Shown: in pieces, positions 5,574-57,754 of the stretch | How the letters are laid out: the number at the start of each line of letters is the position of its first letter | Numbering within the stretch: the stretch's first letter is position 1 | From: an uncultured Candidatus Saccharibacteria bacterium | GTDB taxonomy: Bacteria > Patescibacteriota > Minisyncoccia > UBA6257 > Colwellbacteraceae | Length of the DNA stretch: 64,000 nt | NCBI GenBank assembly: GCA_964609135.1 | Contig: CAZSQQ010000002.1 | Span: forward strand, 13,349 to 77,348 | Direction of reading: 5' to 3' | The notes under the pieces: model-generated | What the model saw: only the letters and a program-made list of their open reading frames with translations | Told to the model about the DNA's origin: nothing | Database searches by the model: none | Position numbers and translations under genes: made by a program

Positions 5574-5930
5574 TTAGTCTTTATCCTTTGGTAAATTATC
5601 TAAAAATTTCTTTGCATCTGTGGCGGTAAATTCTTTGCCTCCCTCTATTATCGCTAAAATATCATCTTCGTCTCCGACCAAATATTTCTTGCCGTCAACT
5701 TCAATTTCATCAGGGCCGTACTTTTTAAACAAGACTGTGTCGCCGGGCTTCACCGACATCGGTACAAGTTCGCCTTTATCGTTTCTCTTGCCGGGACCAA
5801 CGGCCACTACTTTGCCCTGCATCGGCTTTTCCTTATCAGCCGTGTCGGGAATAACTATCCCCGACTTGGTAGTTTTTTCGTCCTCTGAAATTTCTATAAA
5901 AACGTGGTTGGAAAGAGGTTTTAGATTCAT
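5574..5930 (-). CDS. groS: co-chaperonin GroES (Cpn10) with C-terminal extension
   Basis: MNLKPLSNHVFIE...GKVVAVGPGKR... mobile-loop and roof motifs of GroES; 5 nt upstream of groEL. Confidence 0.9.
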   Translation of the reverse strand: MNLKPLSNHVFIEISEDEKTTKSGIVIPDTADKEKPMQGKVVAVGPGKRNDKGELVPMSVKPGDTVLFKKYGPDEIEVDGKKYLVGDEDDILAIIEGGKEFTATDAKKFLDNLPKDKD

Positions 5931-5941
5931 ACTGCAGAATA

Positions 5942-5970
5942 CATTTAATCAAGAAAGAAGAGTTTGTCAA
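5942..5970 (-). promoter_or_regulatory. sigma70-like promoter for groES operon (-35 TTGACA, 17-nt spacer, -10 TAAATG); very short leader, no CIRCE
   Basis: Minus-strand sequence TTGACAAACTCTTCTTTCTTGATTAAATG-T-ATTCTGCAGT-ATG(groES). Confidence 0.35.
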
Positions 5971-6089
5971 GAATTTCCATCTTATTTGACAAAATACACA
6001 TTAAATGATAGCGTTTTCAGTGAAGTTCGCGATCCTAAGCAACGTAAAGGTTCCTTGGGTTCGCTGAAACCAGGGAACATTTACATAAG

Positions 6090-6330
6090 GGATTGAAGAA
6101 AGGGGGTGAAAAACATGATCCGATTCCTGTGTCTCTTGCGCGGGCATCTCTGGCACTCCGAGGAAGTTGCTCCCGGGAAATACGGGGGGTACAGATGCAC
6201 TCGGTGCGGCCAACCTTTCGTCCACATCTCTCTCATCTCTCAGGGCTGACCTTGGCACCGCGTGCCCCGGTCCCTCACGGGGAGGTGGGGAGGACCGGGG
6301 CCGTCGCTGGTAGCGACGGCCTCTTTTTTA
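6090..6330 (+). ncRNA. candidate structured small RNA (GC-rich island ending in intrinsic terminator); family not assigned
   Basis: About 65% GC over 240 bp against an AT-richer background; several GC-rich hairpins (GCAC-TCG-GTGC at 6206-6216; CCCCGGTCC...GGACCGGGG at 6268-6298); both ORFs across it have implausible composition. Confidence 0.3.
6299..6330 (+). terminator. Rho-independent terminator (plus strand)
   Basis: GGCCGTCGCT-GGTA-AGCGACGGCC, 10-bp perfect stem, followed by TCTTTTTTATTT. Confidence 0.55.
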
Positions 6331-18619: not shown

Positions 18620-18741
18620 GGTCTATATTATATCATATAGCCCTCTGCCAACAAGAAAACCAATTTACTTGAATTAAAAACTCTGCTATATTCTTACCGT
18701 CGTTCGGCAAGCTCACGATGGTGAGTTGCACCGAACCATAT

Positions 18742-18813
18742 TCCGCAGTAGCTCAATGGTGGAGCAACTCCCTGTTAAGGAGATGGTTGTAGGTTCGAGT
18801 CCTACCTGCGGAG
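18742..18813 (+). tRNA. tRNA-Asn (anticodon GTT)
   Basis: TCCGCAG-TA-GCTCAATGGTGGAGC-A-ACTCC-CTGTTAA-GGAGA-TGGTT-GTAGGTTCGAGTCCTAC-CTGCGGA-G; cloverleaf with one A-A mismatch in anticodon stem. Confidence 0.85.
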
Positions 18814-18884
18814 CATATTAGTCACACTTAGAACCCATGAAAACAGCCATCGGTTGTAGGTTCTTGATATAATCAATTGCGGAA

Positions 18885-19674: not shown

Positions 19675-20346
19675 GTGAGCAAAAAGGTTCTGCTTGTAAG
19701 TCTTGCAGTAATTGCAATTATCGGCGCCGCCTTATTAGTTCCAACGGGCAAGCGGTCTTTTAACGCTAATATTTTCGGTGAAAGAAAAATATTAGGGAAA
19801 GCTAAAGACGAAACTCAAACTAAGGACGTTTTAAGCAAAGCCAAAACCTTTTTTGAAGACACTTCCGAAAAAGTCCGCGAGACGGCAACTAAATCAGTAG
19901 AGGCGGCCAAAACTTTCGCCGCCGAGAAAGCTGTTTCAACCGCGCAGGCGCTTGCCGGGAATGCTGAAAGGAAAGCAAGAGAATTGGCTTTGAATGTTCT
20001 TCGTGGAGTAGAAGAAAACATAGGGGAGGGAAATATTCTTCCAACAAACACAGTTCAAGTAATCCCGCCGGAAGGAATAACGTCCCCGCCAATCAGCTAT
20101 TTAGCGAAACTTGGCAGCACTATTTCATTTAGCATCAGAAAATCGTCTTTGCCGGAATTCGTTACCTTCAACTTATCGCTTGACTGGGGAGACGGAACCA
20201 TGGAAGAGAAGCTGGGCTTGAGTAACGAAGAAAATCAGACCTTCTCACATACCTGGAGCGTCCTCGGAACCTACCAGTTTCAGTTCAAAGTCTCTTCCGG
20301 AAACGCCACCAAAACTTATACCGGAAGCGTAACCGTCATTGAATAG
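19675..20346 (+). CDS. secreted protein with C-terminal PKD-like domain (GTG start)
   Basis: Signal peptide; ...LSLDWGDGT... PKD signature. Confidence 0.5.
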   Translation: MSKKVLLVSLAVIAIIGAALLVPTGKRSFNANIFGERKILGKAKDETQTKDVLSKAKTFFEDTSEKVRETATKSVEAAKTFAAEKAVSTAQALAGNAERKARELALNVLRGVEENIGEGNILPTNTVQVIPPEGITSPPISYLAKLGSTISFSIRKSSLPEFVTFNLSLDWGDGTMEEKLGLSNEENQTFSHTWSVLGTYQFQFKVSSGNATKTYTGSVTVIE

Positions 20347-20374
20347 TTCAATAAATTCACTATGAATAGACCCT

Positions 20375-32027: not shown

Positions 32028-32055
32028 TCTTGCAGTGAATTTATTGAACTATCAA

Positions 32056-43521: not shown

Positions 43522-44607
43522 ATAGGGAATCACTATAGAAGCACAGAAGGGGAAAAAGTTGCGGACAATGATACTTATACGACAGGTGCCAGCCAGCAGG
43601 TTCTCTCGGGGGCTACCCTGCCCGCGGGGTACAGGGCGGCTGTAAATGGCGCTGATTGCAACGATACCAACAACACCCTCTGGCAAAATCTGACTGGCTA
43701 TGCCGATGCCGATCTTGATACCTTTACGACCGGAGCAGGGGTGCAAGTCTGTTCTGGAGCGGCTCTGCCTTCAGGGTATAGAGCGGCTGTGAATGGGGCT
43801 GATTGCAATGACGCCAATGGCCTTATCTGGAGAAACAGGTATCGGGATGCCGACGCTGATACGTTTGGCGCGGGCGCTCTGGTCTGTGTTGGCAATGACG
43901 TTGGTTATGTTGATAACGCCAGTGATTGCAACGACGCCGATGTGAACAAGTGGCAGAATCTGACGGGCTATACCGATGCCGACAGTGACACCTTTACCAC
44001 AGGAGGAGGCGTGACAGTCTGTTCAGGAGCCTCTTTGCCTTCAGGATACAGATCAGCCGTGAATGGGGCTGATTGCAATGACGGGAACGCTTCCGTCTGG
44101 CAAAATCTTACCGGCTATACCGATTCCGATGCCGATGGTTATGGTTCATCAGGTCCCGGCAGTGTGTGTTCCGGAGCCAGTCTTCCGGGAGGCTATGTAT
44201 CTAACAACAGTGATTGTTATGATTCAAATGCTAATGCCCGTCCCGGACAGGGTAGCTTTTTTACTACCAATAGGGGTGACGGCAGTTTTGATTATGATTG
44301 TAATAGTGCCATTGCATATGACCAGCCGTACTATGACGACGTAGCCAATTTTACAATATCTCACTTTGATACTGGGCCATATGGCACTGTTTGCGTTACT
44401 GGCAGTACGGACAATTATAATCAAGTGACCAGTGCCTCTTTTTGCGGTACTTCGCATGAGAACTCCGTAGTTGCAGGTGGAACTCCATGTATTAGCTGCT
44501 CTACATCGAATTATCCTAATACTACCTGCTCAGCACCGGCTGGCGTATGCGGATACACTCAATTTTTCGGCTGTATACACAACTTCATGACCATAAGCTG
44601 TCATTAA
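43522..44607 (+). pseudogene. 5'-truncated MopE-type Cys-rich repeat protein (silent cassette / partial paralog of 44702..46189)
   Basis: Open frame from 43522 with no ATG/GTG/TTG before GTG 43741; no signal peptide; repeats of CSGASLPSGY..GADCND.N...WQNLTGYTDAD.DTYTTG; diverged C-terminal ~100 aa. Confidence 0.45.
43561..43700. repeat. IR-left: 140 bp perfectly identical in inverted orientation to 45567..45706
   Basis: Base-by-base comparison of both copies; identity begins and ends abruptly. Confidence 0.85.
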
Positions 44608-44630
44608 TGTTATTAGACGCAACTCAAATA

Positions 44631-44676
44631 TACTAAAGGTTTGCCCAGTGGTTAACCACTGGGCAAACCTTTAGTA
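44631..44676. repeat. 46-bp perfect palindrome (21-bp arms around TTAA; GTTAAC core) between the convergent MopE-like genes
   Basis: TACTAAAGGTTTGCCCAGTGG-TTAA-CCACTGGGCAAACCTTTAGTA. Confidence 0.85.
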
Positions 44677-44701
44677 TAAAAGAATAAGTCGTTGTACTGT
44701 C

Positions 44702-46189
44702 TCAGTGGCAAATCCAGGTCATCGTGGAGAGGACGTACCATCGCGTGATACTGCACCCTGGGTCGGTGTAGCCGCTGGGATTGCAAACACTCCTGGTTGA
44801 CCCGCACTCAGCGTTAGTGGCGGTCGTTCTTACCGTACCTAAGCTACATGACGGTGAGGTCTGGCCACATACACTATAGGCATCCCTTGCATAACAGGGA
44901 CCATTAGGTGCCGCGTCGCATGGTGGTCCGTTAGGATCAAGCTCGTTAACACCGCTACAATTGTAGTCAAAACTGCCATCGCCTCTGTTAGAACTATAAT
45001 AGGCGGTCTGTCCGGGCTTGGCATTGGCATTACTATCATAGCAATCGGCGCCTGAACCGGCGGTAGAAAGATAGGGCGAGGGTAGTGATGCGCCCGAACA
45101 AACAGTGTAGGGTCCAGTAGTATAAGCATCACCATCGGCATCGAGATAGCCGGTCAGGTTTTGCCAGACAGTGGCGTTCGCGTCATTGCAATCTGGGCCG
45201 TTTGCATTGGCCGTGTAACCTGATGGCAAAGAAGCCCCAGAGCAAATGGATTGGGCGGTTGAATTCGCTCTAACGCCATCGTTATCAGCATCAGTATAGC
45301 CGGTAAGGTTCTGCCAAACGGAGGCGTTCCCGTCATTGCAGTCAGTCGAATTATCAACATAACCGGCGTCATTACCTACACAGGTGGCTGAAGATACTCC
45401 ATAACCATCTCCATCTGCATCGCGGTATCTGTTTCTCCAGATAGCGCCATTGGCATCATTGCAATCGGTGGCGGTAGCTGAAGCCCTATACCCGGACGGC
45501 AAGGAGGCACCTGAACAAACTGACTGGGCACTACCAATGGTATAGGTATCACCGTCAGCATCCGTGTAGCCAGTCAGATTTTGCCAGAGGGTGTTGTTGG
45601 TATCGTTGCAATCAGCGCCATTTACAGCCGCCCTGTACCCCGCGGGCAGGGTAGCCCCCGAGAGAACCTGCTGGCTGGCACCTGTCGTATAAGTATCATT
45701 GTCCGCGTCCGCGTAGCCGGTAAGATATTGCCATTTGGTGGAATCGGTTGCGGCGGCGTCAGCTGATGTTGTAGAGGTCATAACATTTCTCCTTCTGCCA
45801 GATGTAGGAGCTGTGTCTTGAGCGTATTGAGTAAGAGAATCCGCATATCCATCGCCGTCGGTATCAACCATCCAAAGATTGGTTTGCTTAAGCTGACCGG
45901 TAGAATTTATGGCAATGGAACCGGTGACGGTAATGGTTTGACCGGAATTCCAGGCAACAGTCTGGCCGGCATTGATTGTCAAAGTTTGACTCAAGGCTAC
46001 AGTCAAGTCGCCGTTATCAACTCCGTCAACGGTGTTCGGGAAGGTGCAGCTCGAACTAATTGTGAGGGCGCCACCGGCGGAGGGAGAACAGTTTACGGCG
46101 AGCGCCGCCCCGGGGGCTAAAAAGTACAAAGCCGCCGCTATGGGCAGACCAAGTTTTATAAAAGATATTTTATTAATTCCTGATTTCAT
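44702..46189 (-). CDS. secreted MopE-type Cys-rich putative metal-binding repeat protein (full-length, signal peptide)
   Basis: Start at Met28 (46189) gives signal peptide MKSGINKISFIKLGLPIAAALYFLAPGAALA; about 6 repeats of DADGDGY/DxDxDxY + DCND.N pattern (MopE/PF11617-like). Confidence 0.6.
   Translation of the reverse strand: MKSGINKISFIKLGLPIAAALYFLAPGAALAVNCSPSAGGALTISSSCTFPNTVDGVDNGDLTVALSQTLTINAGQTVAWNSGQTITVTGSIAINSTGQLKQTNLWMVDTDGDGYADSLTQYAQDTAPTSGRRRNVMTSTTSADAAATDSTKWQYLTGYADADNDTYTTGASQQVLSGATLPAGYRAAVNGADCNDTNNTLWQNLTGYTDADGDTYTIGSAQSVCSGASLPSGYRASATATDCNDANGAIWRNRYRDADGDGYGVSSATCVGNDAGYVDNSTDCNDGNASVWQNLTGYTDADNDGVRANSTAQSICSGASLPSGYTANANGPDCNDANATVWQNLTGYLDADGDAYTTGPYTVCSGASLPSPYLSTAGSGADCYDSNANAKPGQTAYYSSNRGDGSFDYNCSGVNELDPNGPPCDAAPNGPCYARDAYSVCGQTSPSCSLGTVRTTATNAECGSTRSVCNPSGYTDPGCSITRWYVLSTMTWICH
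45567..45706. repeat. IR-right: inverted copy of 43561..43700 (140/140 identical)
   Basis: See IR-left. Confidence 0.85.
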
Positions 46190-46213
46190 AGTTCGATGTG
46201 ACTCACCATAAAT
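46190..46213 (-). repeat. conserved junction element copy F (..AATTTATGGTGAGTCACATCGAACT-ATG)
   Basis: Abuts start codon of MopE-like gene; mini-ORF MVSHIEL* with TGA overlapping ATG. Confidence 0.6.
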
Positions 46214-46221
46214 TTGCTTTC

Positions 46222-46716
46222 TTATTTTACAACAATAGTCCCGATAGCGACTCCGGCGGCATATTTCCAAGTACCTTTCTTAGTGATTCTCATTATTTTA
46301 AACTCGCCCGGAGATATCAAACCGGCGTTCAACTCTTCATTAGATCCGTCGCCTGATGGCGGATCGGAATATACTCTAATTAGCTGACTCGATTTGTTAA
46401 TAATTTTAATCCACTGACCGCTCTTAACGTTATCTGATTTAATCTCTTCGGGTTTAAAAGTAAAACTGACATTTTGCGGCGATAGCGTTGCCCCGTCATA
46501 GGCTATGGTTGCTACTTTGTTGTAGCCGGTATCGGGCGGTTCTTTGGGAGCCGCAGGATTGCTTCCAATAACCTCTCCAGCTACAGGCGATTTAGAATTA
46601 ATATACGGCGAAACAAATTTGAATAAGCTGTCTTTATAGAAATAGAGAAGTACCACAAGCAACAACGCTAAAACCAAGGCAATTTTCGAAATCATCTTTT
46701 TGGTTCTAATTTTCAT
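46222..46716 (-). CDS. secreted hypothetical protein with C-terminal cupredoxin-like beta-sandwich (related to 17215..18619 pair)
   Basis: Signal anchor; C-terminus ...GEFKIMRITKKGTWKYAAGVAIGTIVVK resembles ...GSWKYHDHLNPSKAGTVVVE. Confidence 0.45.
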   Translation of the reverse strand: MKIRTKKMISKIALVLALLLVVLLYFYKDSLFKFVSPYINSKSPVAGEVIGSNPAAPKEPPDTGYNKVATIAYDGATLSPQNVSFTFKPEEIKSDNVKSGQWIKIINKSSQLIRVYSDPPSGDGSNEELNAGLISPGEFKIMRITKKGTWKYAAGVAIGTIVVK

Positions 46717-46740
46717 GGTTCGACGCGGCTCACCATAAAT
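46717..46740 (-). repeat. conserved junction element copy E (TAA-TTTATGGTGAGCCGCGTCGAACC-ATG)
   Basis: Fills the entire 23-nt gap between two genes; mini-ORF MVSRVEP*. Confidence 0.6.
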
Positions 46741-47315
46741 TATCTAAAATTCAAATCTATATGAGAGCTGTAATTAGCCGACTTAGCCTCAAGTATGGCC
46801 GTATATATTTTATCGTGGGTGTCGTTTATTTTCCAGCTTCCGCCCCAAACTCCGTCTTCCCGTGCGCCAGATAGGAGTTTCAGATTATGGCTAACGGTTT
46901 TGGCGTCTCCTTGTGTCTTAAGGACGACTGATTCTATCGCTTCCGGAGCTTTTACCTTAACCGTAACTCTCTGCTCCTTGCCAACACTGCTGTGGAGCGG
47001 ATCAAAGACCGCTTCGGTAAAAGTCGGTATTTCTCTGGTTTGAATATTGTAGGTTTCTTTGGTATTGAAAGGCAGTTTTAAGTTAGAATCAGAGCTTTTT
47101 GTAGTGGAAGGGAGGGGCTGATTCTTGCCTCCATCAATGGTTCGATACAACTCACCATAAGAAGAAAATATGAACGACGCAAGAAACAGCAAGCCAAGGA
47201 CCGTCGCCAACGTCTTAGCGCTGTTATCTAGACTTAAGCCTTTATTTAGTCGGGACAATAAACCCTTGGACATTTTCATCGCCAATCGCGCTATTGCTCC
47301 AACTTTGATAATCAA
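46740..47315 (-). CDS. hypothetical membrane-anchored or secreted protein
   Basis: 191-aa ORF (start may be Met13/Met15); contains junction element copy G inside its coding region just after the TM. Confidence 0.4.
   Translation of the reverse strand: MIIKVGAIARLAMKMSKGLLSRLNKGLSLDNSAKTLATVLGLLFLASFIFSSYGELYRTIDGGKNQPLPSTTKSSDSNLKLPFNTKETYNIQTREIPTFTEAVFDPLHSSVGKEQRVTVKVKAPEAIESVVLKTQGDAKTVSHNLKLLSGAREDGVWGGSWKINDTHDKIYTAILEAKSANYSSHIDLNFR
47139..47160 (-). repeat. conserved junction element copy G (TTATGGTGAGTTGTATCGAACC), intragenic
   Basis: Encodes SSYGELYRTIDGG in ORF 46740..47315. Confidence 0.55.
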
Positions 47316-48234
47316 AACGAGGAGCCGTTAAGCGGTAGGAAACTTCGCCGACTTTGTCGCCATAGACAGTTAACTTACCGGAGTGAGCTTCTTTCTTATA
47401 CCAAGCCCTGCCGTCAAACCCGGGAGAAACTATAACTGATAAATTCTGCCAATTTTTGCCAAAGTCGGTAATCTGATAGAAAAGCCATAAGTCCGAGCCT
47501 TTCTCGGCATTCTTGAAATCAAGAACCGCCTCGGCAATTTTCAATTTTGAATTTTCAATTTTCAATTTAAGAACGCCTGTCGTTTCTTCTTTTACGCCAG
47601 TCATGCTGGGTAGATAAGTGGCGAATCTCTCGCCACCGATGGTATAAATCGGATCAACTGTGCCGGCATCGAGTTTTCCAGAGCCGCCACCGACTACCAC
47701 TGTGCCGCCGCTTGGGGCAATAAGCACATTGCCTTTGGTCGCGTTAGAAGTTGAGTCCAGTGTCAGAGTGCCGCTCACGGTGCTGTTTCCGAAAAGCGTG
47801 AAACCGGCGGCGTTGATGTTGCTCGCCCAAGGTGTCTGCGGTGAAGTTGCGGCGGCCGCGCTTGTCCAAGCCGTGCCATTCGAGGTTAAAACATTGCCGC
47901 TTGCTCCCGGAGCTACGGCCGTAAAGGCGGAAGCGGCATTACCAATCAAAGCTCCCGATAAGGTGGTGGCGCCGGTACCACCTTGGGCAACAGTCAAAGC
48001 GGTAGTAAGTCCGGTAATGGAGGTAATATCCGAGTTCGCGCCCGAGGCGGCCGCACCCAAATTGGTTCTCGCGCCGGAAGCGGTCGTCCCGGCGGTCCCG
48101 CCGTTCGCTATGGGAACCGGCCCGCCGCCCGTGGGCGGAGCAGCCGAGGGATTGGTCCAGGCCCTAACCACTCCGAAGAGAGCCATAAAGCCCACGAGAA
48201 CTAAAACAAAATAAAGCGGGAGGTTCTTAGTCAT
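47242..48234 (-). CDS. secreted Gly/Thr/Ala-rich protein with tail-fibre-like GGTGATT...ARTNLGAAASG repeats
   Basis: Signal anchor; low-complexity N-terminal half, beta-rich C-terminal half. Confidence 0.45.
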   Translation of the reverse strand: MTKNLPLYFVLVLVGFMALFGVVRAWTNPSAAPPTGGGPVPIANGGTAGTTASGARTNLGAAASGANSDITSITGLTTALTVAQGGTGATTLSGALIGNAASAFTAVAPGASGNVLTSNGTAWTSAAAATSPQTPWASNINAAGFTLFGNSTVSGTLTLDSTSNATKGNVLIAPSGGTVVVGGGSGKLDAGTVDPIYTIGGERFATYLPSMTGVKEETTGVLKLKIENSKLKIAEAVLDFKNAEKGSDLWLFYQITDFGKNWQNLSVIVSPGFDGRAWYKKEAHSGKLTVYGDKVGEVSYRLTAPRFDYQSWSNSAIGDENVQGFIVPTK

Positions 48235-48314
48235 TTTATCTTTATCTCATTATACATTATTCGTTTTCTACTTACTAACAAGCTATCAAGCTAACTAAAG
48301 GGCTAACAAGCTCG

Positions 48315-49703
48315 CTACGGGCTCCAGTTAACTATGACATCGTCAACTACCGGAAGTCCGCTGGAAGAGGAAGCAACCTGCATCACCTTATAACTCACCG
48401 TCCCACAGGTAGAGGTGTTGGAGCAGTTGAAGCTTATCCAGCCCAAAGCGTCATTCCAGCCCCAGCCGGAGAAGTCCCCGGTCGTGGTATTCAACAACAC
48501 CCTGTAATCCGACGTAGCGCAGGTATTGCCGATAACGCTATTGTTGCAATTGAAGCTTATCCAGCCAACGGCATCGTTCCAGCCCCAGCCGGCAAGATTG
48601 CCGGCGCCGTCATTGGTAACGTTGAAGTTGCTGGTACTGCAGATATTGCCATTGGGGGAAGTGGCGCAGTCAAAGGCTATGTAAGAACCGGCGAAGCTCT
48701 CCCAGACGGCATAACCCTGAATGAGACTGGGGGTTATGTTAACGGTCCCCGGCGAGAAGAAGTTCATCCAGCCGAAGGAATCGTTCCAGGCCCATTTGTT
48801 TACGGAGTCGATGCCGGTCGAGGGAAGAGTATAGATGCCATCTAAGAAAACCTTATATCTATAGTAGCGCTTATTGTTGTGATAAATGCCCGCGATCTGA
48901 ATGGGGCTATTGGGACCGCTCGGGCTGTAATAAGTTGCCGATGATCCGTCCGACCCCAAAAAGGCGCCGTCACCGGCAGTCTTACTGCCTCCCCAGCCGA
49001 CACCCGCAGCACAGCCTGGAGCGTCGGTTGCGCCATTGGAACAATTGGCAGTTGCCAGTTGAAACTTAACCGCTGAATCGGTGGGCAGTGAACCCTGCCA
49101 GAGAAAGCTGTTAAAAGAAACTCCGTTAGAGTAGCCGGTGTCAAAAGTGCTGGAGATTAAGTTCCCGGCAACAGGCCCGGAGATATTTTGGCTCACCTTA
49201 TAACTCACCGTCCCACAGGTAGAGGTGTTGGAGCAGTTGAAGCTTATCCAGCCCAAAGCGTCATTCCAGCCCCAGCCGGAGAAGTCCCCGGTCGTGGTAT
49301 TCAACAACACCCTGTAATCCGACGTAGCGCAGGTATTGCCGATAACGCTATTGTTGCAATTGAAGCTTATCCAGCCAACGGCATCGTTCCAGCCCCAGCC
49401 GGCAAGATTGCCGGCGCCGTCATTGGTAACGTTGAAGTTGCTGGTACTGCAGATATTGCCATTGGGGGAAGTGGCGCAGTCAAAGGCTATGTAAGAACCG
49501 GCGAAGCTCTCCCAGACGGCATAACCCTGAATGAGACTGGGGGTTATGTTAACGGTCCCCGGCGAGAAGAAGTTCATCCAGCCGAAGGAATCGTTCCAGG
49601 CCCATTTGTTGGTGGAATTAATGTTGGTGGCGGCAGAAGCAATTTCCGGAAAACCAAATGACAAAACCACAATGACCAATAAGATTGAATTAAAAATTTT
49701 CAT
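48315..49703 (-). CDS. secreted Trp/Cys-rich repeat protein (W.WND..GW..F modules) carrying a duplicated 139-aa block
   Basis: Signal peptide MKIFNSILLVIVVLSFGFPEIASA; repeats GWGWNDAVGWISFNC... Confidence 0.55.
   Translation of the reverse strand: MKIFNSILLVIVVLSFGFPEIASAATNINSTNKWAWNDSFGWMNFFSPGTVNITPSLIQGYAVWESFAGSYIAFDCATSPNGNICSTSNFNVTNDGAGNLAGWGWNDAVGWISFNCNNSVIGNTCATSDYRVLLNTTTGDFSGWGWNDALGWISFNCSNTSTCGTVSYKVSQNISGPVAGNLISSTFDTGYSNGVSFNSFLWQGSLPTDSAVKFQLATANCSNGATDAPGCAAGVGWGGSKTAGDGAFLGSDGSSATYYSPSGPNSPIQIAGIYHNNKRYYRYKVFLDGIYTLPSTGIDSVNKWAWNDSFGWMNFFSPGTVNITPSLIQGYAVWESFAGSYIAFDCATSPNGNICSTSNFNVTNDGAGNLAGWGWNDAVGWISFNCNNSVIGNTCATSDYRVLLNTTTGDFSGWGWNDALGWISFNCSNTSTCGTVSYKVMQVASSSSGLPVVDDVIVNWSP
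48383..48800. repeat. 418-bp direct repeat, copy 1 (100% identical to 49193..49610)
   Basis: Line-by-line comparison, offset 810 bp. Confidence 0.9.
49193..49610. repeat. 418-bp direct repeat, copy 2
   Basis: See copy 1. Confidence 0.9.
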
Positions 49704-49726
49704 AGTTCAATGCGATTCACTACAAG
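49704..49726 (-). repeat. conserved junction element copy B (TGA-CTTGTAGTGAATCGCATTGAACT-ATG)
   Basis: Fills the 23-nt gap; frame VVNRIEL* with TGA overlapping ATG. Confidence 0.55.
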
Positions 49727-51049
49727 TCATGGCACTTGAATTTGGATAGACCCGGGGGTGGTTGACGCATCGATCTTGGTCTGCGAAGAATAACCGGTGT
49801 TAGGACTTGTAACCGGCCCTTCAGCGCCAGACCCTCCATTCCAGTTGCTGAATTGGGTAATTTCGTTTTTGGAGCGAGTCAAAAATTCAGAAGCTTGGAT
49901 TTGCGGAGACCCCCCGAACTGACTCCACGAAACCGTAGCCGTGACTTTCTGCGTTGAGGGATCTTCCGTGCCGCCAGTCGCTACGATTGATCCGCCGGAA
50001 TCACGATTAACGTTTTCAACCGACAAATAGCGGGTGAAGGGACGGGAATTATAGGTTTGAGTGACCTCGGCCGCCGAGACCGCCCGCTTGTAAATTTTAA
50101 CGTCGTCTATCCTGTGACTCGCGGACGTTCCATCGGCGTCCCCCATCCGAACAGATCCGGCAGTATAAAGCGTTTGGCTCGCGAGAGCCGAGGTTGTCGT
50201 ACATTGAACTCCGTCCAAATAAACCTTAACAGTTGTGCCGTCATAGGTTCCAAGCAAGTGATGCCAGGCATTTAAAGTAAACGACGGGGCGCAACCCGAG
50301 GCGTTAAATTGGCTCACTCCATTAAAAACTCCGAAGAGGGCGTTGCCGCCGGAATCGGCAAATAAATTCCAGCCGCCGGCGGCGGAGAAATTATTGGCCA
50401 CCAGATCATCAAAGTTAATATGACCGGTCAAATAAACCCAGGCCGAAACAGTTATGGCTGTGGTTGGGAACCCGCTCGGGGGCGCAATCGTGACATACTG
50501 GCCGGTCCCGCTAAGAGTTAGGCAGTCGCTCACGAAACAGGAGACTGTTCTCACGGGACTGCCAGTCAAAGTCCCGTTATTGCCAACACCGGAGGAATCA
50601 TAGGCATTGACCCCTGAAGCCTCATCCAGTTTCCATTGACCAACCAAGCCGTCCCTAATCTCATTTTCAGGAACCCCCTCTTTACCGGTTACGACGGTGA
50701 AATCGGCGCCCGTTGCATTCACAAGATAATAATTGGTAGAAGGGCCCTTGCTAGCCACATTATAAAGATTGGTCCAACCGGCCTGGGAAAAAGACCGCGC
50801 GTTATCAATGAGCTCTTGACTTAACAGATTGGCGGTTTGCACGGTGCGATTTTGGGCGTTGATGCGAAGCGTCAAAACTATCGCTCCCGCCGCCGAGCCG
50901 ATAATCAAGGTTCCAATGGCCACAGCCACGAGCACCTCAACCATTGATTGACCCCTTCGATGTGACTCACTCTTCGACTCTCGCTCAGAGTGCCCTGAGC
51001 TTGTCGAATGGGCAGGGCGGGCCCTCCTCTTGTTAAAACTGGTAGGCAT
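49727..51049 (-). CDS. pilin-like protein with LamG/concanavalin-like (LamG_3) domain; start ambiguous (51049 or 50944)
   Basis: ...RRG-QSMVEVLVAVAIGTLIIG hydrophobic helix with Glu+5, then LVGQWKLDEASGVNAYDSSGVGNNGTL LamG_3 signature. Confidence 0.55.
   Translation of the reverse strand: MPTSFNKRRARPAHSTSSGHSERESKSESHRRGQSMVEVLVAVAIGTLIIGSAAGAIVLTLRINAQNRTVQTANLLSQELIDNARSFSQAGWTNLYNVASKGPSTNYYLVNATGADFTVVTGKEGVPENEIRDGLVGQWKLDEASGVNAYDSSGVGNNGTLTGSPVRTVSCFVSDCLTLSGTGQYVTIAPPSGFPTTAITVSAWVYLTGHINFDDLVANNFSAAGGWNLFADSGGNALFGVFNGVSQFNASGCAPSFTLNAWHHLLGTYDGTTVKVYLDGVQCTTTSALASQTLYTAGSVRMGDADGTSASHRIDDVKIYKRAVSAAEVTQTYNSRPFTRYLSVENVNRDSGGSIVATGGTEDPSTQKVTATVSWSQFGGSPQIQASEFLTRSKNEITQFSNWNGGSGAEGPVTSPNTGYSSQTKIDASTTPGSIQIQVP
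50956..50972 (-). repeat. conserved junction element copy H (GTGAGTCACATCGAAGG), 10 nt upstream of internal ATG-GTT-GAG (MVEV...)
   Basis: 14/16 identical to copy F. Confidence 0.5.
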
Positions 51050-51078
51050 TTCCTATTTAAGTATAAATCACTTGTTGT

Positions 51079-51102
51079 GGTTCGACATAGCTCACCGTAA
51101 AT
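51079..51102 (-). repeat. conserved junction element copy A (TTTACGGTGAGCTATGTCGAACC) overlapping stop of 51092..52219
   Basis: Same orientation as other copies. Confidence 0.55.
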
Positions 51103-52219
51103 TGAAATTATAAAGAGTGGTGACCTCTGAAGCCGAGAGAGCCCGGCTATAGACACGAACTTCATCAATCGAACCGCTTAGAAATCCGGAAGCGAGGTCG
51201 CTTTTCACGGCCATAGTAAAGGGCGCGGCATTCACGTTAACCGAGGTTATGGTTGTGGCCGCGGAATTCTGAAGAGACCCGTCAATATAAATCCTTGCCG
51301 CCACCCCAGACTCAAAAACGCCAACCAAATGATGGAAAGTGCCGTCAGCTAAATTCGATGTGCCGGATACACTCACATTGGTTGTGCCATTAGAAACATA
51401 GAATTGTCCAAATCCAGAAGTTGCCGCAATATTCAGATTGTAAGCGATGGAGGCGTCTAGATCAGTATTGCGCTTGGCAATAATGTAAGCTAAAGCTGTC
51501 GAGGAAGTTTTAATCCAAGCGCTAAGAGAAAAGGAGCTCCCAACATTTAAACTTGAACCATTGCCGGCAGTGACATAATTAGAAGCGCCGTTAAAACTTA
51601 AACAGTTGCCGCTCTTGCAAGAGACTCCCGCAACCCATGTTGGCGCGGCGGCCGAAAAAGTTCCGCTATTGCCGTTCCCGGAATTGTCATTAGCCGTCGT
51701 GCCGGTATTTTCATCTAAATCCCAGTAGCCGACCAGGTCTTTTATGAGGTCGTAGTCAATCTTGCCGGACGTATTCACGGACACGAGACCAATCTGATTC
51801 GATAAAACCGATGAACTTATAACAATATTTGTACTTATATTCGGAATTCCGGTGGCCTTATCAAAAATCACGTCCCTGGAAGTATTGTTAACGGGATCGG
51901 TGAAATCAAGCTGGGGGCTAAGTGAAATTTTGGCGAGCACGGTGCCCGCCGCATAACTTGCGCCGCTCCAAATTTCGTAATAATCGTTGTCCGCTCCGGT
52001 CGGATTCCAGAATCTGATTCCCCACTGCAAACCGTTTTCTTGCGCCCTTGACCTCTGGGCGGTTTGCCTCACGTCGCTTAGAACCCTGAAAGTCATGCTG
52101 TTTAAAACCTGCTTTCCGCGAATGCCAAAATATCCCGGGGCCACAACGGCCGCGAGGAATGCCGTAACGGCCAAGACTATCAAGACTTCAACCAAAGTGA
52201 ACCCCTTCCTAGATGACAT
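51092..52219 (-). CDS. type IV pilin fused to LamG-like domain (class III signal peptide MSSRKG|FTLVEVL)
   Basis: Canonical prepilin cleavage motif G|FTLxE; LVGYWDLDENTGTTANDNSGNGNSGTF LamG_3 signature. Confidence 0.7.
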   Translation of the reverse strand: MSSRKGFTLVEVLIVLAVTAFLAAVVAPGYFGIRGKQVLNSMTFRVLSDVRQTAQRSRAQENGLQWGIRFWNPTGADNDYYEIWSGASYAAGTVLAKISLSPQLDFTDPVNNTSRDVIFDKATGIPNISTNIVISSSVLSNQIGLVSVNTSGKIDYDLIKDLVGYWDLDENTGTTANDNSGNGNSGTFSAAAPTWVAGVSCKSGNCLSFNGASNYVTAGNGSSLNVGSSFSLSAWIKTSSTALAYIIAKRNTDLDASIAYNLNIAATSGFGQFYVSNGTTNVSVSGTSNLADGTFHHLVGVFESGVAARIYIDGSLQNSAATTITSVNVNAAPFTMAVKSDLASGFLSGSIDEVRVYSRALSASEVTTLYNFNLR

Positions 52220-52426: not shown

Positions 52427-53638
52427 TTAAACCTTTCCCACCAGTTGATAGACGGGAATGATTATGGCGAGCGCGATCACTCCCACAATCATGCCGATAA
52501 TGAGGAGGAGAACCGGTTCCAAGAACGATATTAAAATCTTGAGAGACGAATCAATTTCAGACTCATAGAACTCGGACAGGGTCTCGAGGATGCTCTCCAA
52601 GTGACCGGATTTTTCGGAAATGGCGATTAGATTCACAACCACTCTCGGAAAATATGTCTCCCGGTGAAAAGCTTCACCGATTGTCAAACCCTTGGCGATG
52701 CCCTCCCTGGAAATTCTAATCAGAGTCGCTTCCATGTCCGGATTGCCGACGGTTTTGGCGGTTATCTCCATCGCTTCCAGGATCGGCATCCCCGACCGCA
52801 AAAGCGAAGAGAGGGTCGAGGCAAATCTCTGCAAGGCGATTCTATAAATAATTTCGCTAACCACCGGCAATCTCACCAAAGTTCTTCTTAAAATCCTTTG
52901 CCCAAGAAAATTTTTGAAAAAGAAAAACCATGAGCCAAAAACGGCGGAGACGAGAAACAACAATACCGCGAAAGCGTTATGGCCCAAAAAGAGCCCGATA
53001 GAAAAAACAATCTTGGAAAAAAGCGGCGGCTCAATGCCGGCCGAAAGGAAGGTTTCGGCTATCCGAGGCAACGCGAAGGTGATCATAAGAAACAGGATCA
53101 CGAGTGACAGGAAAACAAGAACTACCGGATAAATAAGAGCGCTCTTAATTTTGTTCCTTAACTGTTGTTCTTTCTCCAAGCCCCGACTCAAGTCTTCAAA
53201 AATCTGATCCAGATTGCCCGAGACCTCTCCGGCACGAATGAGATTGGTAAAAACCGCCGAAAAGTACTTGGGGTATTTCTCGAAAGTGGTATAGAAAGGC
53301 TGTCCCCGGCTTAAGGCGTCCTTGATTTCCAAGAGAAGAGTTTTAACCGACGGTTTCTCAAAGTCGGCGATTAAAATATCTATGGCGCTGAATAGATCGG
53401 TCCCGACTCTAAGCATCAAAGCCAGGTACTTGGTTAAGAATACCTTGTCGGCCGTGGTAATGGATTCTGAAAAGACGCCCTTAACCCCCCTGGTTTCAAC
53501 CGCCCCCAAAGATTTTAGGGAAACCGGACGAAGACCCTGCTTCCCCATCCACTCCAAGACTTCGCTTGGGGCTCCGGCTTCCAAGTCGCCTTCGACGGCG
53601 TTATTTTTTGCGTCGGTGGCGATATAATGAAATCTCAT
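52427..53638 (-). CDS. pilC: type IV pilus inner-membrane platform protein PilC (GspF family)
   Basis: Two T2SS-F repeats, 3 TM, about 400 aa. Confidence 0.8.
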   Translation of the reverse strand: MRFHYIATDAKNNAVEGDLEAGAPSEVLEWMGKQGLRPVSLKSLGAVETRGVKGVFSESITTADKVFLTKYLALMLRVGTDLFSAIDILIADFEKPSVKTLLLEIKDALSRGQPFYTTFEKYPKYFSAVFTNLIRAGEVSGNLDQIFEDLSRGLEKEQQLRNKIKSALIYPVVLVFLSLVILFLMITFALPRIAETFLSAGIEPPLFSKIVFSIGLFLGHNAFAVLLFLVSAVFGSWFFFFKNFLGQRILRRTLVRLPVVSEIIYRIALQRFASTLSSLLRSGMPILEAMEITAKTVGNPDMEATLIRISREGIAKGLTIGEAFHRETYFPRVVVNLIAISEKSGHLESILETLSEFYESEIDSSLKILISFLEPVLLLIIGMIVGVIALAIIIPVYQLVGKV

Positions 53639-53639
53639 T

Positions 53640-55349
53640 TTACTCTCTAATGACTCGGAATATTTCTTCGATGGTGGTAATTCCCTGTTCGACTTTTCTT
53701 AAACCGTCTTCAAACATACTTATCATACCCTCTTTTTTAGCTAAAGCCCTAAGGGCGTCGAGCGAAAAGTCGGGACTCACAATTAACTTCCTGACTTCTT
53801 CGGTAATTTCCAGCACCTCGAAAATACCTACCCGTCCCTGATAGCCGCTCTCATTATCGGCCGCACAGCCCTTGCCTTTGTATAACAGCTTGGGAAGCCT
53901 GTACTCATTCGGGTCAAATCCCAATTCGGATAGCTGTTTCCTCACGGCCGCCTCGGTTTGGGCGTCGAGCTCGTAAGACTCGATACAATCAAGATGAATC
54001 TTTCTTACCAGCCTTTGAGACAAAACGGCATTTAAGACGGCAGCCACCAGGAATTGGGGGACTTTCATATCCATAAGACGGGGAATGGCCGTCGGAGCGT
54101 CGTTGGTGTGGAGCGAAGACAAGACCAAATGCCCCGTCAAGGCTGACTGCACGGCAATGCCGGCGGTGTCCTCGTCGCGAATTTCTCCAACCATGATGAT
54201 ATTGGGATCCTGTCTCAAAATAGACTTGAGACCGGTCGCAAAAGTCACGCCAGCGACGGGATTAATTTGGGTTTGATTGATAAACTTGATATCGTATTCA
54301 ATTGGATCCTCAACGGTCACAATATTCACTTGAGGGTGATTCAGGGAGGCGAGGACCGAATAGAGGGTGGTGGTTTTGCCGGCTCCGGTCGGACCGCAGA
54401 CCAAAACCATTCCGTAGCTTTTTTTGACATTCTCTTCCAAAAGTTTCACGGTGTCCTCAAACATGCCCAATTCCGCAAAAGATAAGGGGCGGCTCACGGC
54501 TGTGAGTAACCTCATCTCCACCTTCTCTCCATAGAAGGTGGGCATGATGGCGACTCTAACGTCAATCGTCTCCGTGCCGACTTGATAGCGGAAACGGCCG
54601 TCTTGCGGCTTGGAGTGCTCGTCAATCTTCAAGCCCGAGAGAAGTTTGATCCTGGCCGTGACCGCCGGATGAATTTCTTTGGGGAGTCTGAACATTTCAT
54701 AGAGAATGCCGTCAACCCTGTAGCGGACGAGAATTGAGTCCTCGAAAATCTCCATATGGACGTCCGATGACCTCAAGGACATCGCGTAAGACAAGAGATT
54801 GTCAACGGTCGCGATGATTGGGACATCGGTCGCCGCCGCCTCTCCTTTGGCGCGACTCTCAAGCGATTTTCTCACGCTCTCTTCGATCGTTTCCTGAAAA
54901 CTCTTCGCTGAAACTTTGCCGTAAAGCGAATAGCCTTTATTCAAATCCCCCTCGCTCGCGATATAGGGCTTGATTCGGACTTTCAAATAACTCTCCAAGA
55001 ATTCTATGGTTAAGAGGTTCGAGGGATCCTCCATGGCGGCTCCGAGCACACCGGGAGATTCCTCACGAAATATTATTGTTCTTTTATCTCTGGCTATATT
55101 TTCGGGCAGGAGTTTCAGGACGTTCGCGTCTATCTCGCCGCCCTCGATCCTCGAGAGAGGCACGCTTAAATAGAAAGAGAGAGCGTTAATGTAGTAATCC
55201 TCGGTAATGATGTGCCGAGAAATCAAGGTATCGGCCAAACCTTGCCCCAGGCGAGCGGCTTCCGAGGCCACCTCATCAAAAACCTCCGGAGCGATAAGTT
55301 GATCTTGAGTAAGAATCTCTTTCAATTTTTGCGGAGGAATCTGGAGCAT
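53640..55349 (-). CDS. pilB: type IV pilus assembly ATPase PilB (GspE family)
   Basis: Walker A GPTGAGKTTTLY, Asp box, His box, Walker B of secretion ATPases. Confidence 0.85.
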   Translation of the reverse strand: MLQIPPQKLKEILTQDQLIAPEVFDEVASEAARLGQGLADTLISRHIITEDYYINALSFYLSVPLSRIEGGEIDANVLKLLPENIARDKRTIIFREESPGVLGAAMEDPSNLLTIEFLESYLKVRIKPYIASEGDLNKGYSLYGKVSAKSFQETIEESVRKSLESRAKGEAAATDVPIIATVDNLLSYAMSLRSSDVHMEIFEDSILVRYRVDGILYEMFRLPKEIHPAVTARIKLLSGLKIDEHSKPQDGRFRYQVGTETIDVRVAIMPTFYGEKVEMRLLTAVSRPLSFAELGMFEDTVKLLEENVKKSYGMVLVCGPTGAGKTTTLYSVLASLNHPQVNIVTVEDPIEYDIKFINQTQINPVAGVTFATGLKSILRQDPNIIMVGEIRDEDTAGIAVQSALTGHLVLSSLHTNDAPTAIPRLMDMKVPQFLVAAVLNAVLSQRLVRKIHLDCIESYELDAQTEAAVRKQLSELGFDPNEYRLPKLLYKGKGCAADNESGYQGRVGIFEVLEITEEVRKLIVSPDFSLDALRALAKKEGMISMFEDGLRKVEQGITTIEEIFRVIRE

Positions 55350-56113: not shown

Positions 56114-57631
56114 CTATTTCGCATACTCAACCGCTCTCATCTCGCGAATAACATTAACTTTAATCTCACCCGGGTATTTCAATTCCGATTCGATCTTCAC
56201 GGCGATGTCTCTCGCGAGCTCGAGGGCTCTGAAATCGTCAATTTGCTCGGGCACGACGAAAACCCTTATTTCTCTGCCGGCTGAAACGGCGTAAGAATTC
56301 TTAACTCCGGGAAAGCTCATGGCGATTTTTTCCAAATCCTCCAGCCGCTTAATGTAGTTCTCGAGCGTTCCCCTTCTCGCGCCGGGACGCGCCGCTGACA
56401 GGATATCGGCGGCGGTAACAATGAAGGACTCCGGAGAGGCAAAGGGATATTCCTCGTGATGAGACTGCATGGCCAAAATCACCGCCTCGTCCACGCCGTA
56501 TTTCTTCAGAATCTTCCGCCCCAATTCAACGTGAGTGCCCTGCACTTCGTGATCGATGGCCTTACCGATGTCGTGAACCAAGGCGCCTTTCTTTGCCACC
56601 TCGACACTCACTCCCAAATCGGCGGCTATCATGCCGGCCACGTGAGCCATTTCCACCGAATGGGTTAAGACGTTTTGTCCGAAACTGGTCCGAAAGTGGA
56701 GCCTCCCCAAGAGCTGGAGGATCTCCCTCGGCAAATCCAACACCCCCACCTCATAAGCGGCCTCCTCCCCAATCTCCAAAATGCGCTTATCAAGTTCGTT
56801 TTGGGCTTCTTCCACTTTTTCCTCGATCTTGGCCGGCTGGATCCGACCGTCCTTGATGAGCTTCTCCAGTGCCATCTTCACAATCTCGCGACGCATCGGG
56901 TCGAAAGAAGAGATGATTATCGTCTCCGGCGTTTCATCGATGATAAGTTCGGCGCCGGTCAGCCTTTCAAGAGTTCTTACGTTCCGCCCCTCGCGGCCGA
57001 TGATTTTCCCTTTGAATTCCTCCGATGGCAGCGTGAAAATCGAGGTGGTAATTTCTGAAACGTGGCTCCGCGCGTAACGCTGTACCGCCGTCGTCATAAT
57101 CTCAACGCTTTTTTTCTCAATCTCGTCTTTCCTTTCTTTCAGAAGCTTCTGGAGAACCATTGTCGTTTCATCCCTCGCCCTTTCCTCAATTTCCTGAAAA
57201 AGTTTTTTCTTAGCCTCTTCCTCGCTTAACCCGGCAACCCTGGAAAGGGCGGCCCTGGCTTGGTCTTTAATCTTATCAAGTTCGCCCCGAGAGACCTCCA
57301 GTTTCTCTTTCTCTAAGGTGAGGCTGGCTTCCCTTGTTTTTACAACCTCGGTTTCTCGAGAGAGGTCTTCCTCTCTTTTTATCAACCGTTCCTCGAGGCG
57401 GTCCACGGCGGAACGTCTTTCCGTTTCCTCTTTCTTCGCCTCATCCAAAACCGCGACCGCCTTATTCTTAGCCTCAAGGATTATCTCCTGGGCTTCATTT
57501 TTCGCTTTAAGAAATTCTTCTCGGCGCTTATTTTCTAAGCTCTCGGCTCGTTTCTCGGATAAGACCTGTCGAATTACGTAACCGGCGGCCAGGCCCAAAA
57601 AGCCCGCCGCTATAAACGGCAGATAGTTCAT
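56114..57631 (-). CDS. rny: ribonuclease Y
   Basis: N-terminal TM, coiled coil, KH domain, HD domain (HSVEMAHVAGMIAADLG...HDIGK). Confidence 0.85.
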   Translation of the reverse strand: MNYLPFIAAGFLGLAAGYVIRQVLSEKRAESLENKRREEFLKAKNEAQEIILEAKNKAVAVLDEAKKEETERRSAVDRLEERLIKREEDLSRETEVVKTREASLTLEKEKLEVSRGELDKIKDQARAALSRVAGLSEEEAKKKLFQEIEERARDETTMVLQKLLKERKDEIEKKSVEIMTTAVQRYARSHVSEITTSIFTLPSEEFKGKIIGREGRNVRTLERLTGAELIIDETPETIIISSFDPMRREIVKMALEKLIKDGRIQPAKIEEKVEEAQNELDKRILEIGEEAAYEVGVLDLPREILQLLGRLHFRTSFGQNVLTHSVEMAHVAGMIAADLGVSVEVAKKGALVHDIGKAIDHEVQGTHVELGRKILKKYGVDEAVILAMQSHHEEYPFASPESFIVTAADILSAARPGARRGTLENYIKRLEDLEKIAMSFPGVKNSYAVSAGREIRVFVVPEQIDDFRALELARDIAVKIESELKYPGEIKVNVIREMRAVEYAK

Positions 57632-57754
57632 AAGTAAAAATTTTATCGGTTAATTTCATTGGACTTTTATTTAAGTATAAGCCTCGGGATGGAAGCTGTC
57701 AACACATTCGACTTTCTCAGTGTTGATGCTGAGCTTGCCGAACGCATCAAAACC

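Follow-up and report, generated by a model that had tools for sequence, protein, structure and literature searches.

Repetitive extragenic palindromic (REP) sequences with a CGTC-type tag form a group of families that includes dRS3 of Neisseria and the Rickettsia palindromic elements RPE-4 and RPE-6 (Di Nocera, De Gregorio & Rocco 2013, PMC3733652). In that survey, these repeats are marked by a tag (CGTC, TGTC or CCTC), their stem opens with AT, and they occur in several phyla, mostly in intergenic regions and predominantly as head-to-head dimers. Some copies lie inside genes and at N-termini, repeat ends can provide stop codons, and the group is reported to have no dedicated transposase. The families CGTC-1 to CGTC-4 have an uninterrupted stem of 8–9 bp, a loop of 4–5 nt and a CCA tail (PMC3733652). 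Here we describe a junction element, GGTGAG-N5-TCGAAC, found between genes of a type IV pilus gene string in a stretch of 64,000 nucleotides (64 kb, hereafter the window) of contig CAZSQQ010000002.1 from an uncultured Candidatus Saccharibacteria bacterium. The element is one member of a widely distributed family of short imperfect palindromes that is REP-like in form, in its dimers, in its distribution and in its lability. It is itself probably a short imperfect palindrome of the REP kind, a non-coding and non-autonomous repeat whose gains and losses take place at the DNA level.

A sequence-only reading of the window had listed six copies in the same orientation, and all six were recovered. 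Four of them match the motif exactly (46191–46207, 46718–46734, 47140–47156 and 51080–51096) and lie on the minus strand, which is the gene-sense strand; the expected number of exact motifs was 0.00, and none appeared in 100 dinucleotide-preserving shuffles. The other two, also on the minus strand, are degenerate: AGTGAATCGCATTGAAC at 49705–49721 has three mismatches, and AGTGAGTCACATCGAAG at 50955–50971 has two. The variable five-nucleotide cores of the six copies (TCACA, CCGCG, TTGTA, TCGCA, TCACA and CTATG) are as originally reported. An additional copy with one mismatch, absent from the earlier list, was found on the plus strand at 18720–18736, where it precedes a tRNA-Asn gene. Five nucleotides separate its GGTGAG-N5-NCGAAC core from the tRNA, and with the CCAT arm included the hairpin ends 2 nt before it. 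The position of this copy is enough to show that the element is not tied to translation.

Four of the six copies fill short intergenic gaps of 23–42 nt, as the gap coordinates confirm: 46190–46221 (32 nt), 46717–46739 (23 nt), 49704–49726 (23 nt) and 51050–51091 (42 nt). The junction copies start 0–9 nt after the stop codon of the preceding gene or supply that stop, as does the TGA inside GGTGAG at 51092–51094, which terminates the upstream pilin gene. At three junctions the 3' arm carries the AUG of the next gene. The remaining two copies are intragenic, as had been claimed for both: the one at 47140 lies after a transmembrane segment inside the open reading frame (ORF) of a 191-aa protein, and the one at 50955 lies in the part of a pilin-LamG gene that encodes the prepilin leader.

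On the sense strand, the copies in the window read (U)AUGG-U-GA-G-[Y NNN R U]-C-GA-A-CCAU(G). The outer bases pair. The copies have G-C, G·U or A-U at pair 1/18 and G-C or A-U at pair 6/13, and the tandem G·A made by G4·A15 and A5·G14 is invariant. Positions Y7 and R11 can pair in all seven window copies with a GGTGAG-type 5' arm, which are the six listed earlier and the copy at 18720–18736. The variable five nucleotides are thus a hairpin loop with its closing pair, and this bears out the fallback suggestion of the sequence-only reading, a DNA or RNA site with a variable spacer, since the Y7-R11 pairing turns the spacer into a loop.

To test independently whether the window copies are members of the family, we used a covariance model, R1, of 28 positions and 10 pairs that was trained only on 96 hairpins from other phyla, and ran it over the 64 kb without filters. 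It returned 12 matches at five separate places, comprising five of the six copies listed earlier and seven more. In the pilus gene string, the copy at the junction of the genes for the 164-aa and 495-aa proteins (46185–46212, minus strand, E=6.3e-5) has the sequence UUUAUGG-UGAG-UCACA-UCGAA-CUAUGAA, with the AUG of the 495-aa gene in its 3' arm. The best match (46712–46739, minus strand, E=1.7e-7) occupies the whole 23-nt gap between the genes for the 191-aa and 164-aa proteins and holds the AUG of the latter within its 3' arm. The intragenic copy at 47134–47161 (minus strand, E=5.9e-6) is read as ..YGELYRTI.. in a poorly conserved linker of the 191-aa protein that cannot be aligned with its ortholog. 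The copy between the pilin-LamG and Trp-rich genes (49699–49726, minus strand) is AT-rich and degenerate and gave a weak match (E=0.34). It represents a subtype AGTGAA-N5-TTGAACTAT, in which G6-C13 is replaced by A6-U13 and G1-C18 by A1-U18 in compensatory swaps. The pilin/pilin-LamG junction holds the last single copy of the string (51074–51101, minus strand, E=1.8e-3). R1 does not recover the copy at 50955–50971, which encodes ..SESHRRG.. of the prepilin leader; its similarity is confined to the core, with no flanking stem.

Six of the additional matches form three head-to-head doublets. One lies in the leader-coding part of the pilin-LamG gene (50966–50994 on the minus strand and 50990–51015 on the plus strand; E=1.4e-4 and 0.1). 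Another directly precedes tRNA-Asn(GTT), which occupies 18742–18814 (18696–18722, minus, and 18715–18742, plus; E=8.4e-7 and 3.7e-3). The third is intergenic (57699–57726, minus, and 57723–57750, plus; E=0.24 and 6.5e-4), upstream of the gene for RNase Y (56114–57631), whose product has the Pfam domains RNase_Y_N, KH and HD. The remaining match is an AT-rich copy at 20340–20366 on the minus strand (E=0.01), antisense to a gene that ends at 20346. An exact-match search showed that its 19-mer core (20343–20361, minus strand) recurs identically at 32034–32052 on the plus strand, antisense and 7 nt upstream of a gene starting at 32027; none was expected by chance. Both occurrences of this 19-mer belong to the AT-rich subtype of the copy at 49699–49726, and both are antisense to the adjacent gene.

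Folding by nearest-neighbour prediction gave -6.1 kcal/mol for the first junction copy, with the AUG paired, and -7.3 kcal/mol for the second. Two of the doublets were folded, each into one long predicted hairpin: the doublet before tRNA-Asn reaches -21.1 kcal/mol (z=-2.3) and that upstream of the RNase Y gene -24.5 kcal/mol (z=-2.9). A terminator scan called none of the copies an intrinsic terminator. The pilus gene string ends at a separate bidirectional terminator with a 20-bp stem (44630–44677), and the junction hairpins lie inside the putative operon. In the window and 18 copy-rich loci, Rfam 15 reported only tRNA at the gathering threshold and nothing over the copies at E<=10.

The pairing is sustained by covariation in relatives. 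In an alignment of the 96 foreign hairpins, 85% of the cells are paired compared with 68% in shuffles, and 167 cells are changed on both sides of a pair compared with 67; neither value was reached in any of 500 shuffles. Three pairs beside the core were required when the aligned sequences were collected. The register is sharp, with pairing falling to at most 51% when the two sides are slid against each other. A CGAG...CGAG subtype, found in the flanks of the listed relatives, compensates the U-A pair beside the G·A tandem. A preference for folding of the sense strand was sought as an excess of G·T over A·C in the stems, and no clear asymmetry was found.

The relatives were found by scanning a collection of species-representative genomes with the pattern ATGGTGAGNNNNNTCGAACYAT, which gave at least 120 loci, with 130 pattern matches among those listed; the counts given below for genomes outside the window refer to these listed loci and matches. 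The family consensus is (C/T)GTC-AYSS-TGAGC-GNA-GTCGAA-SSRT-GAC, with a shorter-loop form TGAGC-YTG-TCGAA. Its stem has the tandem G·A/A·G, then a G-C pair, a bulged U/T and a triloop closed by C-G. The matches come from at least about 20 phylum-level groups. Carriers include Bacteroidota, among them the cultured Mucilaginibacter and Sphingobacterium, many lineages of the candidate phyla radiation (CPR), Omnitrophota, Planctomycetota and Elusimicrobiota, and further Zixibacteria, KSB1, Clostridia, and Alpha-, Gamma- and Deltaproteobacteria including Anaeromyxobacter. The first and last positions of the variable segment (loop positions 1 and 5) are C and G in 114 of the 130 matches, where about 8 would be expected. 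A GNA loop is present in 76. Loops counted in the relatives are CGGAGT (32), CGTAGT (30), CGAAGT (23) and CGCAGT (10), so that all four nucleotides are used at N. A 5' NGTC was found in 73 matches (TGTC 38, CGTC 17, GGTC 13, AGTC 5), and CCTC in five more.

About 100 sister hairpins whose stems differ (ATCC, ACCC, GTGG, GCCC and others) were found at the same loci; 58% of these stems begin with AT and 26% with AC. Altogether 235 hairpins were counted, compared with 9 in shuffled sequence, and in about 25 of the 130 relatives an antisense partner adjoins the hairpin on its 5' side. Family members are also present in megaplasmids, in unannotated intergenic DNA, of Sinorhizobium, Novosphingobium, Comamonas, Granulicella, Hymenobacter and Nostoc. 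Viral contigs of IMG/VR carry them as well, with GNA loops in 64 of 129, and annotated phage records gave almost no matches. In the IMG/VR loci (L130–L249) a CC...GG form of the hairpin is common, often with a 5' flank CCTG(Y) in place of GTCA.

Several individual loci show variants of the same theme. In Sphingobacterium tenebrionis, the flank of the match contains a different palindrome family, GTCATTGCGAGGAACGAAGCAATC, with the same GTCAT head and with a GAG..CGAA core that has a GAA loop, which may point to a broader superfamily of tandem-GA hairpin repeats. A Clostridia metagenome-assembled genome (MAG) from rabbit gut (L057) has mosaic repeats of about 400 nt between housekeeping genes such as cysS (for example at 1136–1610, 2734–3245 and 5784–6166 of that locus). 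These combine the hairpin with tandem units of AATTAAAAATT and G-rich blocks, and look like composites of the bacterial interspersed mosaic element (BIME) type. In a Patescibacteria MAG (L095), three family hairpins are packed at 2099–2193 directly downstream of a tRNA-Glu gene (2194–2268, minus strand). In an Endomicrobiales MAG (L081, 3680–3752), a consensus hairpin is flush with the 5' half of a tRNA-Leu whose sequence breaks off after the anticodon loop; neither ARAGORN nor Rfam found a complete tRNA there. This tRNA-Leu is truncated, and the association with tRNA genes thus rests on the window copy and the Patescibacteria locus.

Placement relative to genes was assessed in the 120 loci on a crude gene map made of the longest ORFs. 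The hairpins are mostly intergenic (135, compared with 56 in genes). Where the neighbouring genes are co-directional, 45 hairpins have the sense and 40 the antisense orientation, with no strand bias; the CPR subset likewise shows none. Gaps between convergent genes hold 33 hairpins and gaps between divergent genes 17. The lack of strand bias together with the mostly intergenic location is the pattern of a REP-type repeat and not of an RNA signal that needs one orientation.

The lability of the copies is seen in an ortholog of the pilus region. The only informative one found, L127, lies on a 307-kb metagenome contig; its 164-aa protein is 71% identical to that of the window, and the gene order is the same from PilC onward. 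It keeps the core at one of the six positions, the pilin/pilin-LamG junction (L127:2511–2524), as a perfect TGAGCGAAGTCGAA core without a stem, and the other five positions hold unrelated spacers. Hence copies are gained and lost within a short time, and the gene cluster can do without them. The second prepilin of the window has a leader of 33 residues (MPTSFNKRRARPAHSTSSGHSERESKSESHRRG|QSMVEV), compared with 11 in the L127 ortholog (MISKTIFRSHG|QS..). The excess, encoded at the 5' end of the gene (50950–51049), is the repeat doublet, and there is no alternative in-frame start. Translation of the cleaved prepilin leader thus appears to include the doublet.

Taken together, the copies have the properties by which REPs are known. 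They are imperfect palindromes of 20–40 nt with a stem-loop, as the model, the pairing and the covariation above controls show. They are numerous and dispersed, with 12 model matches at five places of the window, and mostly extragenic in the foreign loci. They form head-to-head inverted dimers that give larger hairpins, and their occupancy of sites is labile.

A number of observations weigh against this interpretation. Neither the (C/T)GTC tag nor the GNA loop that mark the consensus is present in the window copies; the flanks at the tag position are TTT, ACG or CTT. A Pfam scan of 19 ORFs of the window, including ORFs adjoining copies, detected no recombinase, transposase or integrase family, and no mobilising mechanism was identified. 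No site was seen in both filled and empty form with clean boundaries. In the pilus string, all five single copies are in the sense orientation, which a purely neutral repeat would not predict. As RNA hairpins, single copies are weak, with energies of -6 to -7 kcal/mol and z around -1, no better than shuffles. The invariance of UGAG/CGAA in the family was partly imposed by the search patterns. The tandem G·A, the bulge and the 3-nt GNA loop set the stem apart from those of the four described CGTC families. Finally, and again not as a purely neutral repeat would predict, in at least eight other genomes of CPR, Omnitrophota and Elusimicrobiota an ORF starts exactly at the CCATG of a hairpin; the N-termini encoded there include those of SucC (MKLHEFQAKRLL), CoaBC (MILLGVTGSIAAYK) and an FAD-reductase (MKNFDLIIIGGGAG).

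We propose that the repeat spreads or decays as DNA, in single copies and in head-to-head doublets able to fold into long hairpins. A degenerate subtype (TTTATGG...CYATGAAA, with YRY loops) has probably built up between the closely spaced genes of the type IV pilus string. With gaps of only 23–42 nt, the copies there adjoin or supply the upstream stop and at three junctions hold the next AUG; when co-transcribed, the hairpins would mask that start codon. Initiation would then depend on a ribosome that terminates just upstream, which would provide translational coupling without a Shine-Dalgarno sequence. The hairpins could also act as 3' barriers and give cistron segments differing stability, as is known for REPs. 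They could equally be near-neutral passengers, and we see roughly even odds between such a functional layer and neutrality.

Among the alternatives, the one that fares best is a dedicated RNA signal, in which the tandem-GA hairpin would be recognised by a host factor such as the ribosome, RNase Y or RNase P, punctuate polycistronic RNA 5' of an AUG or a tRNA, and present start codons. Three window copies that end 1 nt before an AUG and the doublet that ends 2 nt before tRNA-Asn agree with it, as do the genuine N-termini at hairpin CCATG in other genomes, the conservation of the core across phyla, and a window without Shine-Dalgarno sequences and with -10 boxes close to 11 of 41 starts. We nevertheless consider this explanation unlikely. 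Orientation is unbiased in the foreign loci and in their CPR subset, many copies lie between convergent genes, within genes or far from starts, two window copies are antisense to their neighbour, and the L127 ortholog does without five of the six junction copies. Moreover, the ATGG-type consensus holds its own ATG (GTCATGG..CCATGAC), so that co-option in gene-dense genomes is sufficient to explain CCATG starts. A broader version of the idea may be put forward as a speculation with a slim chance of being right: the UGAG/CGAA tandem-GA hairpin might be a pan-bacterial signal, read by a conserved machine and recruited as punctuation in compact genomes without Shine-Dalgarno sequences (CPR, Omnitrophota, Elusimicrobiota). 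Placed flush with start codons and tRNA 5' ends, it would either steer processing that yields leaderless cistrons or control initiation through an unfolding that depends on termination.

That the element is an operator in double-stranded DNA, bound by a regulator of the pilus regulon, is much less probable. The palindrome ATGGT...ACCAT, the proximity to start codons and the clustering in one functional gene set would suit an operator. The G·U intermediates and compensatory changes indicate pairing within a single strand; copies also stand at tRNA-Asn and upstream of the RNase Y gene, beside unrelated genes in the many phyla of the listed matches, and are missing from most positions of the L127 ortholog.

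The sequence-only reading also considered a translated leader mini-ORF of seven codons (MVSxIEL/P*), with a stop that overlaps the AUG of the following gene and so provides translational coupling. The readings MVSHIEL*, MVSRVEP* and VNRIEL* are present as written, three copies read ATG or GTG through TGA with an ATGA overlap, and the seven codons keep the same frame in every relative that ends in CCATGA. This frame is a by-product of the palindrome, and the idea has very little left to recommend it: one copy stands before a tRNA gene, at 47140 a different frame is read inside a gene, the copy at 51080 begins with ACG, both orientations and non-genic locations are found, and the 5' AUG is itself paired in the predicted stem. 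The comparison across relatives that had been suggested to separate coding from structural constraint comes out on the side of structure, with covariation at paired sites above shuffles and with 'codon 4' being the GNA triloop, free to encode G, V, E or A.

Equally improbable is the earlier suggestion that the element marks cassette boundaries or serves site-specific recombination (in the manner of attC, dif or shufflon sites) and so lets pilus-associated genes be reshuffled. It draws on the location of copies at gene boundaries of a variable surface-protein cluster, on the central TCACA common to two copies, and on the copy at a tRNA gene, tRNA genes being common integration targets. It is contradicted by the identical gene order of the ortholog without five of the six elements, by the direct orientation and differing central bases of the cluster copies, by the lack of a recombinase match in any of the 19 scanned ORFs, by the length of 22–28 nt without attC R/L boxes, and by housekeeping genes adjoining the element in other phyla.

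Other candidates were rejected on simple grounds. As a promoter, the element has the wrong GG/GC spacing for sigma-54, conserved blocks only 5 nt apart for an extracytoplasmic function (ECF) sigma factor, and a variable core for a T7/SP6-like polymerase, in spite of the resemblance of ATTTAGGTGACACTATAG to AATTTATGGTGAG; an archaeal TATA box does not suit a PilC of the bacterial T2SSF type, and the distance to -10-like boxes varies. An extended Shine-Dalgarno sequence (GGTGA) would lie about 13 nt from the AUG in a genome that does not use such sequences. The reverse complement holds GGTTCGA and ..CACCA, as a tRNA-like element might, with spacing unfit for a T-arm and acceptor and with negative ARAGORN and Rfam results. 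Hammerhead, twister, pistol, K-turn and sarcin-ricin motifs have no Rfam match, and their core nucleotides do not fit.

The genes of the pilus region lie on the minus strand in the order PilB (53640–55349), PilC (52427–53638), pilin-LamG (51092–52219), pilin-LamG (49727–51049) and the Trp-rich gene (48315–49703), beyond which the same strand encodes the proteins of 330, 191, 164 and 495 aa. The label MopE given earlier to the 495-aa protein has no Pfam support. The absence of a Shine-Dalgarno sequence at the element, also reported earlier, is correct but holds for the whole window: Shine-Dalgarno-like 4-mers precede 6 of the 41 ORFs, against a background of 12.6%, and the organism does not use this signal. 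A TATAAT-like -10 hexamer lies 4–12 nt before the start in 11 of the 41, which suggests that leaderless mRNAs are frequent in this organism.

Two features of the surrounding sequence deserve mention. The Trp-rich gene contains a direct duplication of at least 300 nt (48383–48682 and 49193–49492) that is 100% identical, with a spacing of 810 nt, so that the protein holds the same block of about 150 residues twice. The matching contig in NCBI assembly GCA_016187165.1 ends inside this gene, which suggests a region of assembly collapse or of variable copy number. Two convergent genes (43741–44607, plus strand, and 44702–46189, minus strand) encode Cys/Asp-rich repeat proteins with GADCND..WQNLTGYTDAD units and no Pfam match. 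The segments 43561–43727 and 45540–45706 are inverted and 95% complementary, and the terminator at 44630–44677 lies between the two genes.

Recognising the repeat removes a tempting false lead, namely that the junction motif is a pilus-specific leader peptide or cassette site. It also accounts for several oddities of annotation: the prepilin leader of 33 residues, one stop and three start codons that the repeat supplies, and spurious ORFs of the MVSxVEP type. Bacteria as different as CPR lineages and Proteobacteria, and megaplasmids and viral contigs too, carry the 14-nt core TGAGC-GNA-GTCGAA with its tandem G·A, and a REP family that is so broad and has no known mobilising enzyme bears on the spread and host use of 'orphan' REPs of the CGTC type. 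If the placement flush with start codons is functional, it also bears on how internal cistrons are translated without Shine-Dalgarno sequences in compact genomes. Why one core is common to so many phyla, and flush with start codons in compact genomes, is a question worth following.

Among the known systems, the hammerhead ribozyme offers a local likeness. Its stem II junction (CUGAUGAG...CGAAAC) also has a tandem sheared G·A, a G-C closing pair and a short stem-loop, and 11 of 14 positions of AUGGUGAG...CGAACC are identical to the hammerhead string. The essential C3 and A6, the A15.1-U16.1 pair, the three-way junction and an Rfam match are all absent, and these missing features rule out hammerhead identity. 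The attC sites of integrons are 57–141 bp long with R''/L''-L'/R' boxes (RYYYAAC...GTTRRRY), whereas the element described here has 22–28 nt and its TCGAAC departs from RYYYAAC.

The GTAG REPs and REPINs of E. coli and Pseudomonas (Bertels & Rainey, as cited in PMC3733652 and PMC6006769) are closer. Like them, the present element forms inverted doublets that fold into long hairpins, its single copies resemble decayed remnants, and its GTGG-type stems resemble the GT[AG]G foot. In contrast to them, most copies have no GTAG foot, and the Pfam-scanned ORFs adjoining copies include no REP-associated tyrosine transposase (RAYT). The core found here is common to several phyla, unlike the lineage-specific pairs of REP and RAYT. 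The available tables of the HUH/RAYT survey, including class 3 and the 'atypical structures' of subclass 2.6, contain other sequences and not this family (PMC6006769). With Rickettsia palindromic elements the repeat shares a tolerance in coding regions, here in the prepilin leader (50966–51015) and in the linker of the 191-aa protein (47134–47161). The classic RPE-1, as distinct from RPE-4 and RPE-6 (short CGTC REPs), is a longer palindromic insertion according to PMC3733652, and its sequence is unrelated to that of the present element.

The kind of element to which the repeat is assigned is thus well known, and in this respect the earlier statement that it is not a described element does not hold. 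As to the particular family, the statement stands: it was found neither in Rfam nor in the available parts of the REP surveys. The peptides encoded by its members are absent from the tables available in PMC3733652, and searches of the open literature for its spurious peptides (SLSNHE, PFDKLRANG and others) and DNA strings, with the subscription literature outside the search, found nothing; nothing relevant was found on REPs in CPR either. With due caution, we therefore regard the family as previously undescribed. Compared with the CGTC-tagged REPs, it differs in that its tag is usually paired with a 3' GAC (the tail being GAC or CAC) and is not followed by an unpaired CCA tail, and in that the window copies have lost the tag. 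It resembles them in being a palindrome of 20–40 nt, in the TGTC, CGTC and CCTC tags of the listed relatives (38, 17 and 5 of 130), in its mostly intergenic distribution over many phyla, in its head-to-head dimers, in its intragenic and N-terminal copies, and in the stop codons supplied by its termini. The best fit is a new family of the REP kind whose closest described relatives are the CGTC-tagged REPs.

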